Part shown: in pieces, positions 19,183 to 51,111 of the stretch | Layout of the letters: every line of letters starts with the position of its first letter | Position numbering within the stretch: the first letter of the stretch is position 1 | From: Candidatus Bathyarchaeota archaeon | GTDB taxonomy: Archaea > Thermoproteota > Bathyarchaeia > Bathyarchaeales > Bathycorpusculaceae | DNA: 64,000 bases | Assembly (NCBI GenBank): GCA_963806535.1 | Contig: CAWDYC010000005.1 | Location: forward strand, 256,001 to 320,000 | Direction: 5' to 3' | Made by a program: the position numbers and the translations under genes | Notes under the pieces: generated by a model | What the model was told of the DNA's origin: nothing | Database searches by the model: none | Seen by the model: the letters and a program-made list of their open reading frames with translations, nothing else

Positions 19183-19842
19183 TTGTCAGAAAGATTTGCA
19201 AAAAAGTGGGAAAGTAAACGGGAAGATGAGCCATTCCAAAACCGCATTAAAGACGCAGTAAAACCACCAGGACCACTAAAACCACGACTTGACTTTGCTG
19301 TTAGACGCATTGAGCTTCAAGTACAGAAGCTTGACCAAGCAACAGACAGATTCGGCCAAAGAGACAAAGCAATCTTCGCACGCATAGTCGATGCATATGC
19401 AAAACATGACAGCGCACGCGCAAATGTTTTCGCCAACGAACTTGCTGAAGTAAGAAAAATGTCAAAGTTAATAATGAATGCCAAACTTGCATTAGAACAA
19501 ATTACTTTAAGATTACGAACAGTTTCAGAACTAGGCGACGTAGTTTCAACCTTAGGTCCAGCCGTCGGTGTTCTACGTTCAGTCAGATCAGGCTTAGTTA
19601 GCGTGTTTCCAGAAGCAGAAAGTGAACTAGGCGAAATCGGCAACATGCTCAGCGGAATAATGATTGAAGCAGGCCAAGGCAGCGGAATGACATTGAACTT
19701 TGACTCAGTAAACGAGGATGCATCAAAGATTCTTGCAGAAGCAGCAACAGTTGCAGAGCAAAAGATCAAAGACAAATTCCCAGATCTGCCCCCAGGAATG
19801 CCGGCAGCCCCACAATCAGAAAAATCAACACAAAGTTTCTAA
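19183..19842 (+). CDS. ESCRT-III/Snf7 protein, CdvB1/B2-like (no winged helix)
   Basis: RANVFANELAEVRK...LEQITLRLRT helical core; C-terminal FPDLPP MIM2-like; GAGGT RBS before TTG 19183. Confidence 0.88.
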   Translation: MSERFAKKWESKREDEPFQNRIKDAVKPPGPLKPRLDFAVRRIELQVQKLDQATDRFGQRDKAIFARIVDAYAKHDSARANVFANELAEVRKMSKLIMNAKLALEQITLRLRTVSELGDVVSTLGPAVGVLRSVRSGLVSVFPEAESELGEIGNMLSGIMIEAGQGSGMTLNFDSVNEDASKILAEAATVAEQKIKDKFPDLPPGMPAAPQSEKSTQSF

Positions 19843-19863
19843 AATAGGAGGATAAAACACAAA

Positions 19864-20592
19864 ATGTCTAACTCCAATCTTTTTCTTTATATTGGTAAAC
19901 CAATAAAGAACGAATATGGACGAATAATTGGTAAAGTTGCTTCTTTCGCATTAACTCCCGATGGGAAATTTGACGCTGTATATATGGAATTTGGTGATGG
20001 CCAATTCACAAAACAGCCCATGGAAAACTTACGATTTAATGGTTCTGAAGTCACATTTGTAACAAAAATTAAATCTCAAGCAGGCACGCTTTGTGACCAT
20101 ATCCCATTAATTTGGCGCAAAGACGAAGCCCTCAAAGACTTGCTTGACAAGAAAAAAATTGCTCCAGAAGTTTTCCAGGATCTTCACCAAAGCTTCGGAA
20201 CTGTCTTAGTACAGCTCAAAAAGGACGCTCAAGTAATCATAGATGAATCCGCAGTAGAAATTGAACGCTGCCGAGAAGAAATAACCTCGCTGAGCTATGC
20301 CATTGCTAACTTGGAAATTGAACATGAAATTGGAAAAGTCGATGAAGAAACCTACAAATCTGCTTTCGCATTGCTTCAAGAAACTCTCAAACGTGCATCT
20401 TCAGAAAAAACAGATTATGAATTGACCAAAAGCAAACTCGCAAGTGTACTGCTCGGCGATCAATCACAGAATACATTGAAATCCACAAAAACCTATGCAG
20501 AACACGTCAATAACAACAATGATGCAGCATCTAAACTTCCAGAACCCCCCGTTGTTGTCTACGTGAAAGAAATTGGGAAAGCAGGCATCTAA
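19864..20592 (+). CDS. cdvA: Cell division protein CdvA
   Basis: N-terminal PRC barrel IGKPIKNEYGRIIGKV, coiled coil, LEIEHEIG, C-terminal PVVVYVK ESCRT-III-binding-like strand. Confidence 0.88.
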   Translation: MSNSNLFLYIGKPIKNEYGRIIGKVASFALTPDGKFDAVYMEFGDGQFTKQPMENLRFNGSEVTFVTKIKSQAGTLCDHIPLIWRKDEALKDLLDKKKIAPEVFQDLHQSFGTVLVQLKKDAQVIIDESAVEIERCREEITSLSYAIANLEIEHEIGKVDEETYKSAFALLQETLKRASSEKTDYELTKSKLASVLLGDQSQNTLKSTKTYAEHVNNNNDAASKLPEPPVVVYVKEIGKAGI

Positions 20593-46147: not shown

Positions 46148-47093
46148 ATGCCGTTAAAAACTATCAAAAAAGATACGGCAGACGCCCTAGACTTTAGAAT
46201 GGGTCTTGCAAGTTAAAAATTACAAGCTAACTATTGATAAAAAACGCTGTGTCGGGTGCCAAATATGCAGTTTAGCCTGCCCAAAAGAAGCCATAAAAAC
46301 ACAAAAGCAAGCTAAAATTCAAGGAGAAAAGGCTAAAAAAGCCAAAGTTGACGTTGACTTGGCAAAATGCAACTTCTGCGGAATATGCGACGTCACCTGC
46401 CCATATGGAGCAATAAAAGTAACCTTAAACGGTGCACACGACCTTTCTATCTTATCCAAAGAAAGTTATCCGCAACTGGTTCGCGACATAAAAGTCGATT
46501 CTCACCAATGCCCGAAAGAATGTGTAGAATGCGAAACGGCTTGCCCGCTAAACCTCATTAAAATTTCTAAAATCGGTTTTGACGGCAAACCAGTCGAAAA
46601 TGTAGAAGCCCTATCACCCACAGCTAAAAATCGTGTTCAAGTTAACCTTGACATCCAAAAAGATTATTGTCCAACTTGCAAAGTATGCGAGTTCAAATGT
46701 GGTCCGGGCGCAATAAAAGTCGCCAAGACATTTGAAGGAATAATCGGCATTAATCAAGAGAAATGTCCTGAAGGCTGCACGGACTGCCTTGATGTATGCC
46801 CTATCCCAGGCGCATTGGTGCTTGGTGAAGACAAAAAAGTTCATGTTAACGAGGTATTTTGCACTTATTGTGGCGCATGCAAAAACGTTTGCCCAGTAGA
46901 CGAAGCATTAGTTGTTAAACGTACAAAGATTCATCATACCCCTATTCATTCAGGAACGTGGAATAAAGCGTTAGAAAGATTAACTTCCCCAGTCGATGCA
47001 GTTAAAGAATTAAAAACTCAAGCTGACGAGAACAGACGCAAAGCAGTTAGTAAAAGATTTGTTGCATATGAAATTGGAAAGGAGGCAACTTAA
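46148..47093 (+). CDS. Polyferredoxin (FwdF/MvhB-like; frameshift near 46195)
   Basis: Six CxxCxxCxxxC-type motifs; ATG at 46148. Confidence 0.88.
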
Positions 47094-49547
47094 TGAGTTG
47101 TCCAACTTGTAACCAACCAGAAACTGCTAAACCTGAAGAATTACGCGTCGGCGTTTTCGTTTGTCACTGCGGATTAAACATCGCAGGTACTGTAGACGTA
47201 AAGGCAGTTGCTGAATACGCAAGAACAATTCCAGACGTAGTTTTCGTTAAAGAAAACCGTTACACCTGCGCTGACCCTGGACAAGAAGAAATACGAAAAG
47301 CCATCCGTGAACAAAAACTAAACCGTGTAGTCATCGCTGCTTGCTCACCAAGAATGCATGAACCCACTTTCAGACGCACCGTTTCAGAAGCTGGCTTAAA
47401 CCCGTTCCTTTTCGAAATGGCTAACATCCGTGAGTTCGCTTCATGGTGCCACCAAAACGATCCCGCAGCTGCAACGGAGCGAGCCAAAGATTCAGTTCGC
47501 ATGGCTGTAGCAAAAGTACGTTTAATGCAGCAACTTCAAACCATTGAAGTGCCAGTTACCAACAAAGCCCTAATCATCGGCGGCGGAATCGCAGGAATGA
47601 ACGCAGCCTTAGACCTGGCTGAAATGGGCTACAAAGTCTACATGCTTGAGAACTCACAGAGCATCGGCGGACACATGGCGGCGCTTGACAAAACCTTCCC
47701 TACGTTGGACTGCAGTATCTGCATTGAAGGACCAAAAATGGTCGATTGCGGACGCCACCCAAACATAACAATTTTCGCTAACTCAGAACTTGTTAAAGTG
47801 GACGGTTACATCGGCAACTTTAAAGTGAAAATTCGCAAAAACCCCCGCTATGTCATACCTGAGAAATGTACAGGATGCGGTGAATGCAAAGATGCTTGCC
47901 CAATCGAGTACCCCAATGAATGGGACATGAACTTGGGGACACGCAAAGCAATTTCAGTGCCCTTTGACCAGACTGTACCGCTGATTTACTCTATCAACAA
48001 AGATTATTGTATTGAATGTTTCAAATGCACTGATGTTTGCGGTGAACGGCAAGCCATAGATTTTAATCAGAAACCTGAAGAAGTCGAATTTGACGTTGGC
48101 GCAATCATTGTTTCAACAGGTTTCGACGTTTACTTACCATACGACATGCCATTGCTTGGCTACGGGAAATACCCCAACGTTATTACAAGCATGGAGTTTG
48201 AACGACTCATTTTGGCTGCTGGTCCAACAGGCGGCAAAGTGATTCGGCAATCAGACGGGCAAAAACCTCATAGAATCGCTTTCATCCAATGCGTCGGCAG
48301 CCGAGACAAAAACAAGTACCCATACTGCAGCAACTTCTGCTGCATGTACACGCTAAAACATGTGGTTCAACTCAAAGAGAAGTACAAGGAAGACATTGAA
48401 GTCTACGTTTTCTACATGGATATTCGCAGCCCAGGCAAAGGCTACGAAGAATTCTATGACCGCGCACGGGAACGAGGCGTAAACTTCATTCGTGGACGCG
48501 TAAGCCGCATCGACGAAGACCCTAAAACTCACAATTTAACCGTTCACTCCGAAGATTCACTTCTTGGAGTCCCAATCGAAGTTGAAGCAGACATGGTAGT
48601 GCTTGCAACCGCAGCCATACCCAAAAAAGGCTCAGAGGACATTGCACGAATACTTAACCTGTCACGCGGTGCAGACGGCTTCTTCATGGAGTCTCATCCC
48701 GAAACTTAAACCGATGGATGCTCCAACAGACGGTGTCTTCTATGCAGGCGCTTGCCAAGGCTTAAAAGACATTCCCTACAGCGTTTCGCAGGGAAGCGGT
48801 GCAGCGTCAAGGGCAGCCACAGTCATCAGCAAGCAAAAGTGGAAGATTGAACCAATCATCTCAATAGTTGACGAAACCAAATGCCGAAACAAAACTGCCA
48901 AATGCGGTGTCTGCGTTGACAAATGCCCATACGGCGCTATCAAAGCTGAACCAGGCAAAGCAGCACACATCACTACAGCCAACTGCCACGGATGCGGAAC
49001 ATGTGTTGCCGAATGCCCACAACACGCAATTACCCAGATGCACTTTACTGATGCCCAAATTATAGCTCAAATCCGAGCCGCACTTGAAGATAAACCTGAA
49101 GACAAAATCCTAGCCATCCTCTGCAACTGGTGCAGCTATGCAGGCGCAGACCTAGCAGGCATCAGCCGATTCGACTACCCCGCCAGCGTTAGAGCTATCC
49201 GTGTTATGTGCAGCGGCAGAGTAGCCAGAGAATTCGTTCTTGAGGCACTTCGGCTTGGCGCAGGAATGGTTTTGGTTGGCGCATGCCACTTACCCTACGA
49301 CTGCCACTACATCAACGGCAACTACAAAATGAAAGCACGAACCGACGCTCTCAAAGGAATGCTGACAAAACTGGGCATGAGTCCAGAACGGTTCCGAGTA
49401 GAATACGTTTCAGCGGCAGAAGGCATACACTACGCAGAAGTCATCAAAGAAATAGATGAACAAAGAAAAGCACTTGGCAAAGAAAAGATTCAAGCCGAAA
49501 ACGCAAAACTTAAACCTATTCTAGAAAACATGCTAAAACGAAAATAA
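47093..49547 (+). CDS. hdrA: HdrA-MvhD fusion flavoprotein (frameshift near 48700)
   Basis: VFVCHCG, ACSP, GGGIAG, KTFPTLDCSICI, QCVGSR, CSNFCC; then ferredoxin and MvhD CNWCSY, VMCSGR, GACH..DCHY. Confidence 0.93.
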
Positions 49548-49734: not shown

Positions 49735-49911
49735 CTATCTAGCAGTTGTTTTTTTGAACCAGGCAATTCCTATTACTGCTACGGTTATTGCTGCTATGAC
49801 GGCTATTGGGTTTATGGCTTGAAGTGTCATGTACGTTTCCCCGAGCAGGGTTATGAAAGTTATTATTGAAACTATGATAACTGCGCTGATGGCGATGTTT
49901 TTGCTGCTCAC
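49735..49911 (-). CDS. 58-aa two-TM membrane protein (not in ORF track)
   Basis: AGGAGGTGA RBS then GTG; MSSKNIAISAVIIVSIITFITLLGETYMTLQAINPIAVIAAITVAVIGIAWFKKTTAR. Confidence 0.72.
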   Translation of the reverse strand: MSSKNIAISAVIIVSIITFITLLGETYMTLQAINPIAVIAAITVAVIGIAWFKKTTAR

Positions 49912-50047: not shown

Positions 50048-50335
50048 TTAATCTTCTTCTTCGTCGAGTTTTCGCTCTTTAACTTTTAGAGCTTCTGCAT
50101 CACCGATAACTTTGAAGGTTTCTGTCAGCTCGTGCTTGTGCAAGAATTTTTTGATGATTATGCGCACGTATTTCTTTGAGAGTGCTTCGCCTTCACCCTT
50201 CACTGTTACGATTTTTCCGTCGTTGGTTACGTCTCCGCCTGTTTTCTCTTTTAGGAAATCTGCTAGTTTCTCGACTAGTTTGCTTTCGTCGCCTTTAAGT
50301 TCTGAAGCATCGACTTTCATTTCAACCATTTTCAT
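50048..50335 (-). CDS. rpl22e: Ribosomal protein eL22-like
   Basis: LADFLKEK, LSKKYVRIIIKKFLHKHEL..FKVI and acidic tail resemble eL22 FSKRYLKYLTKKYLKK..LRV and acidic C-terminus. Confidence 0.75.
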   Translation of the reverse strand: MKMVEMKVDASELKGDESKLVEKLADFLKEKTGGDVTNDGKIVTVKGEGEALSKKYVRIIIKKFLHKHELTETFKVIGDAEALKVKERKLDEEED

Positions 50336-50414
50336 ATTCACCTCGATTCACATTACGCCTATTTGTTTGCATTTAGCTTAGTTTTTCATGGCTACTATAC
50401 TGATAAGTTTTCCG

Positions 50415-50487
50415 ATTGGAAGTGTCAGTTCGCCCGTCGAGTCCTTCTCACTGCTTAAGCTCAGACTCTAGTGCTCATCATCCAAAA
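50415..50487 (-). ncRNA. Box C/D sRNA, predicted guide for 16S rRNA Cm1402
   Basis: C box ATGATGA 50481-75, D' CTGA 50464-61, C' GTGAGAA 50451-45, D CTGA 50428-25; D guide CGACGGGCG complementary to 16S CGCCCGUCG; terminal TTGGA/TCCAA stem. Confidence 0.85.
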
Positions 50488-50589
50488 CAGTATTCAGCAA
50501 CAAAACTTAAGACTCTTATGGAAAAAGATCACTTATGCCAAAGAAATTCTTTTAAACTATCAAGCGATTGTTTACTTGGAGAAATAACA

Positions 50590-51111
50590 ATGGAACTTTT
50601 CGATGTTATTACAAAGCGAAGAAGCATCAGAACCTTCAAAAAACAAGAGCTACCTCAAGCCACAATTGAAAAGCTGCTTGAAGCTGCAAGATGGGCGCCT
50701 TCAGCTGGAAACGTTCAACCATGGGCTTTTGTAGTTGCAAGTTCACAAAAAACTAAGCAGGACCTTTCTATGGCAGCTTACGGGCAAAAAGACCTTGAGG
50801 AAGCTTCTATTGTTATTGTGGTTTGCGCTGATGAGAAACGAGCGGCAGAAAGTTATGGTGTTCGTGGTAAAACGTTGTATTGCATTCAGGATACTGCCGC
50901 TGCAATTCAAAACATCCTGTTAACTGCTTATTCACTTGGGTTAGGTTCATGCTGGATTGGAGCATTCAAAGAAGATGAGATAAGACTAGTTATTGGGGCT
51001 CCTAAAGAAATGCGTCCAATAGCTTTGATTCCAATAGGCTATCCAAACGAGTCACCGTCAGCTAGAAACCGAAGACCAATAAGCGAAATAATGCATAAAG
51101 AAACTTTTTGA
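50590..51111 (+). CDS. Nitroreductase family protein
   Basis: RRSIR, APSAGNVQPW, LGLGSCWIG, IGYP. Confidence 0.93.
   Translation: MELFDVITKRRSIRTFKKQELPQATIEKLLEAARWAPSAGNVQPWAFVVASSQKTKQDLSMAAYGQKDLEEASIVIVVCADEKRAAESYGVRGKTLYCIQDTAAAIQNILLTAYSLGLGSCWIGAFKEDEIRLVIGAPKEMRPIALIPIGYPNESPSARNRRPISEIMHKETF

Follow-up and report, generated by a model that had tools for sequence, protein, structure and literature searches.

The window analysed here is a stretch of 64,000 nucleotides (nt) from the genome of a Candidatus Bathyarchaeota archaeon (G000:C5:256001-320000; the source genome comprises 2.95 Mb in 12 contigs). A 254-nt intergenic gap, between a gene for an eL22-like ribosomal protein and a divergent nitroreductase gene, contains a box C/D element on the minus strand at window positions 50425-50481, about 57 nt from C to D. 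Read 5' to 3' on the minus strand, the element is GG AUGAUGA GCACUAGAGU CUGA GCUUAAGC A GUGAGAA GGACUCGACGGGCGAA CUGA C. The initial annotation of this DNA, made from the letters alone, had proposed a C/D box small RNA (sRNA) here with all four boxes in order on the minus strand; the boxes were found at that place, and their arrangement recurs in relatives. The parts of the element are as follows.

50481-50475, minus strand: C box, AUGAUGA, preceded by GG at 50483-50482
50474-50465, minus strand: D' spacer, GCACUAGAGU, 10 nt, its first 4-6 nt variable in relatives and AGAGU(C) conserved
50468-50463, minus strand: 5' strand of an internal helix, GAGUCU, overlapping the first two letters of the D' box and pairing with 50444-50439
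50464-50461, minus strand: D' box, CUGA
50460-50453, minus strand: GC-UUAA-GC mini-hairpin closing the C'/D' kink-turn on the C-stem side, its GC...GC nearly invariant
50451-50445, minus strand: C' box, GUGAGAA, degenerate (consensus UGAUGA); relatives mostly have GUGAUA, with UGA invariant
50444-50429, minus strand: D spacer, GGACUCGACGGGCGAA, 16 nt (15-16 nt in relatives)
50444-50439, minus strand: 3' strand of the internal helix, GGACUC, formed by the 5' extension of the D spacer
50439-50431, minus strand: D guide, CGACGGGCG, complement of CGCCCGUCG in 16S ribosomal RNA (rRNA)
50428-50425, minus strand: D box, CUGA, invariant in 129 homologues and followed by an invariant C (50424)

Judged by its sequence and conservation, this element is a real box C/D sRNA; its kind is known, its family is new and its single-guide architecture is unusual. 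The AUGAUGA C box and the CUGA D box can form a kink-turn with a closing pair, and the D' and C' boxes, both degenerate relative to the consensus, are linked by a GC-closed hairpin. The C box core is invariant in an alignment of 129 distinct sequences (alignment A1), and the G at position -3, present in 128/128 homologues, can pair with the invariant C after box D. GGAUGAUGA, AGAGUC, GA-GC...GC-N-RUGA and the guide through CUGAC are invariant or nearly so in the same alignment; free variation is seen in the hairpin loop and in the 4-6 nt that follow box C. The D' box among 134 relatives reads UAGA (48), CUGA (35), CAGA (31) or another sequence (20), always keeping GA, and the D' spacer is 10-13 nt long in 129/134 sequences, most commonly 13 nt (50/134). 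Longer mini-hairpin stems occur in relatives, e.g. AGCC-GGAA-GGCU and AGCUU...AAGCU. No Rfam family reached its gathering score anywhere in the window. With permissive settings, seven of the nine matches over the element, including the six best, were to families of C/D sRNAs or small nucleolar RNAs (snoRNAs), the top one being sR2 (22.1 bits, gathering 42; E 0.009).

The element is widespread in the class. Scanning one public genome per species for exact copies of a 19-mer returned at least 120 matches. Among the 120 matches listed, 117 were full homologues with the whole box arrangement and the remaining 3 were chance occurrences in high-GC coding sequence; nearly all the records listed carry a Bathyarchaeia or Bathyarchaeota label. 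In loci found with the 19-mer, its invariance is a consequence of the search. At least 134 distinct C-to-D sequences conserve the boxes and the D guide, as the earlier proposal expected of a genuine C/D sRNA. Of 41 relatives searched at the DNA level, 29 carry the region, and 23/24 genomes of the genus were positive; segment GACUCGACGGGCG was identical in 23/24 loci, and in several genomes the 64-nt C-to-D segment matched alone, away from eL22. A strict pattern matched 50/201 genomes of the order, with one control match, and 32/53 genomes of the window's family. Many genomes of the same order gave no exact match, so the family is either patchy or more divergent than the patterns allow. When the pattern was applied to a phylum sample, 22/401 genomes matched, all inside the class; two of these came from other orders (G424 and G529) and differ in the D' half, with the same CGACGGGCG-NN-CUGA register. 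None of the 333 genomes outside the class matched the exact pattern, which a divergent guide could escape.

The D guide points to a single site in 16S rRNA. The source genome's own 16S (G000:C4:221732-223226) reads ACACCGCCCGUCGUUCC, and CGACGGGCG is a perfect 9-nt complement of its nt 1364-1372 (CGCCCGUCG). By our own alignment these are positions 1400-1408 in the E. coli numbering. Two unpaired A's (guide positions 1-2) lie between the duplex and box D, and G50433, the fifth guide nucleotide upstream of box D, pairs with 16S nt 1366, equivalent to C1402. A guide that ends 2 nt before box D, combined with the D+5 rule, thus gives C1402 as the predicted methylation site. This target had already been proposed for the sRNA; the proposal matches the source genome's own 16S, which does hold the guide's complement. 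The pairing covers at least the 8 nt sought in rRNA or transfer RNA (tRNA), including the fifth position upstream of D, and it is the longest perfect rRNA or tRNA complement for either spacer. No other complement of the invariant 15-mer with up to two mismatches was found in the genome, except one coding-looking site with two. The target stretch is identical in the 16S of all 19 relatives aligned. Furthermore, no homologue, the two from other orders included, departs from the guide or from its register to box D, and GACGGGCG is retained wherever the search pattern left it free.

The predicted nucleotide is a known site of 2'-O-methylcytidine (Cm). Table 4 of PMC7005279 gives, as equivalents, Cm1376 in P. 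abyssi, Cm1639 in yeast, Cm1703 in human and m4Cm1402 in E. coli. The Arabidopsis equivalent is Cm1645, guided by snoRNA AtU43, according to excerpts of PMC11542601. The same excerpts assign the modification to RsmI in E. coli and to small nucleolar ribonucleoproteins in eukaryotes, bearing out what the initial annotation had stated of RsmI in bacteria and snoRNA guidance in eukaryotes, and in their tabulation Cm1402 is the only small-subunit ribose methylation given for bacteria, an archaeon, yeast, an alga, plants and human (PMC11542601). The sRNA most likely directs this universally conserved Cm1402 of 16S rRNA. Cm1402 touches the P-site codon.

Most of the D' half is engaged in an internal helix. 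The window copy has GAGUCU/GGACUC (50468-50463 with 50444-50439), and RNAalifold selects a GAGUC/GACUC core that pairs the D' spacer with the nucleotides between C' and the 16S guide. The 134 distinct sequences contain 24 versions of the helix: GAGUCA/UGACUC (70), GAGUC/GACUC (17), GAGUCU/AGACUC (9) and GAGUCU/GGACUC (6) are joined by rarer forms such as GAGCUAG/UUAGCUC, GAGC/GCUC, (C)GAGAGU/ACUCUC(G), CAAGAGUU/GACUCUUG and UGAGAGU/ACUUUCG, and one genome has GUCAUCA/UGAUGAC. The variants retain the pairing, some through compensatory changes, and the sixth pair alternates between A-U, U-A and G.U. The helix score was 5 or more in 131/134 distinct sequences, compared with 8.8% when the 3' strand was shuffled. 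Cross-pairing of variant strands with canonical partners lowered the score for locus L187 (own 6.5 versus 3.9 and 3.0) and locus L197 (own 7 versus 5.5 and 4); for other lineages the drop was not clear. The internal helix explains why the D spacer has 15-16 nt, 5-6 of them in the helix and about 10 in the guide, and why no D' guide is free. In the structural model the helix would continue the non-canonical stem of the C'/D' kink-turn, opposite the small GC hairpin. On the predicted pairing, the D' 'guide' is mostly a strand of an intramolecular helix, and the sRNA is effectively a single-guide one. The initial annotation had described a D' guide without a target; no consistent target emerged here either, and the sequence is not an orphan guide, its 3' half being part of the internal helix.

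Three other pairings were considered and set aside. The D' guide can form 8 Watson-Crick and 2 G.U pairs with 16S nt 816-825 (GUUCUAGUGC); the 5' half of the guide is variable and the register shifts relative to both boxes across lineages, as for a chance match. Only the genus offers a GACUCU in 16S helix 44 (nt 1385) as a D' target; GUGGGGUU stands there in other families of the order. The D-spacer extension could pair with GAGUCA in 16S helix 31 (nt 933), but a 6-mer match of this kind occurs as often as expected by chance.

The source genome encodes the proteins with which such an sRNA would work. Fibrillarin (PF01269, 321 bits) and Nop5 (PF01798, 238 bits) are specified by adjacent genes on contig C8, and the L7Ae family (PF01248) is represented by two genes (101 and 64 bits). 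L7Ae would bind two kink-turns, a terminal one formed from GGAUGAUGA...CUGAC and an internal one formed from the D' box (NNGA) and the C' box (GUGA), with the small GC hairpin closing it. The 3' part of the D' spacer would pair with the 5' extension of the D spacer and so prolong the non-canonical stem of the internal kink-turn. Nop5 and fibrillarin would then assemble on the sRNA. The single-stranded CGACGGGCG would pair with nascent 16S rRNA at 1400-1408, at the top of helix 44 in the P-site/decoding centre, and fibrillarin positioned at box D would methylate the 2'-OH of C1402, opposite the fifth guide position.

Whether the sRNA depends on its neighbour for transcription can be judged from the surrounding features:

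50518-50505, minus strand: promoter of the sRNA, resembling a B recognition element (BRE) and TATA box, UAAGAGUCUUAAGU, conserved in 128 homologues
50413-50402, minus strand: second BRE/TATA-like motif, GGAAAACUUAUC, between the sRNA and eL22
50335 (ATG) to 50048 (stop), minus strand: eL22-like ribosomal protein gene, 95 amino acids (aa), Pfam PF01776 Ribosomal_L22e, 27.6 bits (cut-off 23.6)
50590-51111, plus strand: nitroreductase gene from its probable true start, ATG 50590, with GGAG upstream and the usual MELFDVITKRRSIRTF start

The consensus GCGUAA(C/G)AGUCUUAAGU lies at -41 to -26 in 128 homologues, counted from the T of UGAUGA, with A at -37 in 110/128 and the T-rich CUUAAG at -33 to -28. 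Transcription would start a few nt before GGAUGAUGA. The second motif falls within 60 nt after box D in 63/129 loci, usually at +12 to +14 and irrespective of which gene follows, and GGAAAACUUAUC is likely to be the promoter of that gene, here eL22. The eL22 start, with a GAGGUGA Shine-Dalgarno sequence upstream of ATG 50335, is 89 nt after box D on the same strand. This position of the sRNA had been noted previously and holds in the window; it does not hold in general, as eL22 follows the sRNA in only 48/129 loci. Elsewhere an ABC-permease-like or unrelated open reading frame (ORF) follows, and in some genomes eL22 lies about 400 nt or kilobases away, on the other strand or on another contig. 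As far as these loci tell, it is the window's genus and its close kin that have eL22 next to the sRNA. The idea that the sRNA is co-transcribed with eL22, echoing snoRNAs hosted by ribosomal protein genes, is therefore unsupported: the sRNA has its own conserved promoter, GGAAAACUUAUC intervenes as a second promoter-like motif, and the linkage to eL22 is lineage-specific. From the arrangement of motifs, the sRNA would be its own transcription unit, placed just ahead of another promoter.

RNA data gave a weak hint of expression. In one peat metatranscriptome of the 4 runs searched, short contigs cover 50428-50485 with 0-1 differences, and a 140-nt contig from this run spans 50316-50457, bridging the 3' part of the sRNA and the start of eL22. 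No contig from the 4 runs covers 50546-50900, and for contigs absent cover proves nothing. These contigs are compatible with expression and some read-through; being assembled, they may contain DNA and show neither ends, strand nor size.

The two promoter-like copies that flank the sRNA each consist of an A-rich BRE and, after it, CUUAAG or CUUAUC. More than 100 Bathyarchaeia loci (L002-L152) carry this pattern, which may serve as a lineage-specific promoter consensus, usable for the annotation of these genomes.

Besides the nature of the RNA data, several observations weigh against the interpretation as a C1402-directing C/D sRNA. The spacers of the window copy (10 and 16 nt) depart from the usual ~12 nt, as do those of relatives (13 nt commonest for D', 15-16 nt for D), and the C' box is degenerate (UGAGAA). 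The predicted fold (minimum free energy -14.1 kcal/mol, z = 0.63) is no more stable than those of shuffled sequences; an absence of excess stability is usual for C/D sRNAs. The strict pattern is rare in two families of the order (f7, 3/54; f11, 2/47). Most of the internal helix is invariant, so two-sided compensation rests on few lineages. For the target, a 9-bp complement is reached by 7.1% of shuffled guides against rRNA and by 14.0% against rRNA plus tRNA. Genome-wide, stretches of the form UGAUGA...CUGA with a 9-mer complement number 22, compared with 13 in a parallel-strand control. Guide positions 1-2 (AA) are also unpaired with A1398/C1399. The 9-nt complement is therefore weak alone, and the assignment of the target rests on the invariance of the guide and its register, the identity of the target across relatives and the Cm known at the site. 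With all of this considered, an independently transcribed C/D sRNA of about 60-70 nt that founds a Bathyarchaeia family and guides Cm1402 is the probable explanation.

The conserved D' core GAGAGUCA, (G/U)AGAGUCA, is also complementary to UGACUCUC in helix 69 (H69) of 23S rRNA (large-subunit nt 2027-2034 of the source genome, about E. coli 1917-1924 by our own H69 alignment), and the sRNA could be a dual-target guide whose D' spacer directs modification of H69 and whose intramolecular strand is a competing H69 mimic. From 6 to 9 contiguous Watson-Crick pairs with H69 are possible in 130/134 sequences, and in the commonest type (13-nt spacer, UAGA box) D'+5 falls on C1920 (56/134). H69 contacts helix 44 in the ribosome at intersubunit bridge B2a, so that the commonest form would address both faces of the bridge, 16S C1402 and 23S C1920, with the internal strand (UGACUC, ACUCUC) as an H69 pseudo-substrate or gate; in the window's genus the D' function would have decayed, with the structural helix alone left. 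The H69 sequence is the same in two other orders of the class, and where the register changes, the internal partner (ACUCUC, GACUCUU) stays a sub-string of H69, the 5' strand being fixed in most lineages. Dense methylation of H69 is predicted in hyperthermophiles in the excerpts of Dennis et al. 2015 (PMC4644070). We nevertheless regard dual targeting as unlikely. By our estimate, 8-mer matches are expected by chance in 8 kb of stable RNA (about 0.6 per guide), and the D'+5 position shifts among C1920 (56), U1921 (41), U1923 (23) and C1922 (6 of 134). Two genomes of the window's genus have changed the strand (GAGCU, GAGC) together with its internal partner, with H69 presumably unchanged, and the window copy itself forms only 5-6 pairs, and these extend into the D' box. 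In members from other orders (G424, G529) the D' spacers are unrelated to H69 although their H69 is identical; when covariation of D' and H69 across orders was examined, 23S was present in only 2/5 chosen genomes, with H69 identical in both. TlyA is a bacterial dual-specificity methyltransferase that modifies 16S C1409 and 23S C1920, and a dual-target sRNA, if true, would be its RNA-guided counterpart.

If the element is a C/D sRNA and C1402 is not its substrate, it might methylate another RNA, or serve purely as a folding chaperone that pairs briefly with the 1400 region of pre-16S rRNA and transfers no methyl group. The 9-bp match is not statistically compelling alone, the spacing is non-canonical, half of the sRNA lies in the internal helix, and 7-bp alternatives exist in the tRNA-Asp anticodon arm and at 16S nt 225. 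Chaperone roles of archaeal sRNAs have been discussed (excerpts of PMC7994747). Against this, the 16S site is the longest perfect rRNA or tRNA complement, the genome offers no better complement of the 15-mer, the predicted nucleotide is exactly the Cm known in an archaeon and in eukaryotes, and the register to box D is fixed in all homologues, which a pure chaperone would not need; we consider this explanation improbable, somewhat more so than dual targeting. The least credible of the alternatives, to which we give very little weight, is that there is no stand-alone sRNA and the element is a cis-acting kink-turn leader or DNA element of the downstream gene, e.g. for control of eL22 by L7Ae. 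That it lies on the eL22 strand, 89 nt upstream of the gene, agrees with such a role, as does the contig bridging 50316-50457, and binding of L7Ae to kink-turns in mRNA has been proposed (PMC5539422). The element has its own upstream promoter, however, and a promoter-like motif precedes the downstream gene. That gene differs in most lineages (eL22 in 48/129), and there are relatives in which eL22 is about 400 nt off, on the other strand or on another contig.

The sRNA can be compared with known systems. Like archaeal C/D sRNAs (sR2, sR12 and sR5 of Pyrococcus/Sulfolobus), it has the C-D'-C'-D order in about 57 nt and a guide directly upstream of box D, in a genome with L7Ae, Nop5 and fibrillarin genes. 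It differs from them in scoring below the Rfam gathering thresholds, in spacers that are not ~12 nt and in a D' spacer held in an intramolecular helix. This single-guide architecture with an extended internal kink-turn stem would be missed by standard C/D finders that expect 12-nt spacers. The Bathyarchaeia guide is invariant over a class-wide sample, unlike those of Pyrobaculum, where no guide is perfectly conserved even across six species according to excerpts of Lui et al. 2018 (PMC6009581). Known guides for the same helix 44 top select a different nucleotide. sR13 of N. equitans pairs with 16S 1405-1415 and selects A1408, not C1402 (excerpts of PMC5389701); a guide of S. acidocaldarius also selects A1408 (excerpts of PMC4644070). 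In the excerpts of Dennis et al. 2015, helix-44 predictions are sparse in seven archaea, A1408 and G1494 being listed and C1402 not (PMC4644070). The excerpts of that study and of the P. abyssi study (PMC7005279) name no archaeal C1402 guide, and our searches of the literature on Bathyarchaeota sRNA and fibrillarin, on L22e in Bathyarchaeota and on C/D RNAs with extended or intramolecular stems found no description of this sRNA; the supplements of Dennis 2015 and Lui 2018 may still contain a guide for the equivalent of C1402.

No sequence or family relation to the eukaryotic snoRNAs for the Cm1402 site was detected, and none of them is among the sub-threshold Rfam matches. SNORD43 is the human guide for Cm1703, and snR70 is probably the yeast guide for Cm1639. 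The predicted target nucleotide and chemistry are the same as for the Arabidopsis (AtU43, Cm1645), yeast (Cm1639) and human (Cm1703) snoRNAs (excerpts of PMC7005279 and PMC11542601). RsmI, which with RsmH produces m4Cm1402, also modifies the same nucleotide at the 2'-O position, as a stand-alone protein with no guide RNA (excerpts of PMC11542601). The invariant guide, present across many Bathyarchaeia, is a concrete archaeal candidate for installing the universal Cm1402 mark.

A strict scan of the 2.95-Mb genome gave 3 four-box candidates, only one of which, the sRNA of the window, has an rRNA complement. These mesophilic archaea may have kept very few C/D guides, of which the sRNA would be one. 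Another four-box candidate lies outside the window at G000:C5:226810-226865 on the minus strand (AUGAUGA...CUGA...UGAAAA...CUGA, spacers of 12 and 11 nt); neither rRNA nor tRNA contains a 9-nt complement of it. A further C/D-like candidate is at G000:C1:22770-22820. A relaxed genome-wide search by 9-mer complementarity returned 233 matches, essentially noise.

The sRNA also corrects the annotation of the neighbouring nitroreductase start. The listed ORF 50416-51111 (plus strand, TTG start) runs antisense over the sRNA gene and its promoter. Its Pfam nitroreductase domain starts at residue 65, and the ATG at 50590 is preceded by GGAG. The N-terminal extension encoded by 50416-50589, which had already been called spurious, is very probably so by these sequence features.

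The eL22-like gene downstream of the sRNA may merit separate study, since discussions of eL22 mostly treat it as a protein of eukaryotes and Asgard archaea. A 151-genome phylum sample gave 10 matches at E <= 0.001: the source genome, 6/7 others of the window's family, 2/2 of one sister family and a tenth in a genome outside the class, below the Pfam cut-off. None of 14 control genomes, 4 archaea among them, matched. Just downstream of eL22, at 49735-49911 on the minus strand, is a 58-aa strongly hydrophobic ORF that has no Pfam match.

In one of the Bathyarchaeia genomes from another order (L204/L205, G529:C7 ~19247-20029), the 23S match is broken, immediately past the 3' strand of H69, by a stretch of about 780 nt that looks like an rRNA intron or insertion. 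Within the window, an HdrA-like ORF (47093-48709, plus strand, ending ...FFMESHPET*) overlaps an ORF with MvhD/FlpD (48603-49547, plus strand), which contains ...IPKLKPMDAPTDGVFYAGACQG in another frame. From the sequence, a 1-nt frameshift near 48690-48700 seems to have divided a single gene into these two; a homopolymer assembly error, a pseudogene or recoding could account for it.

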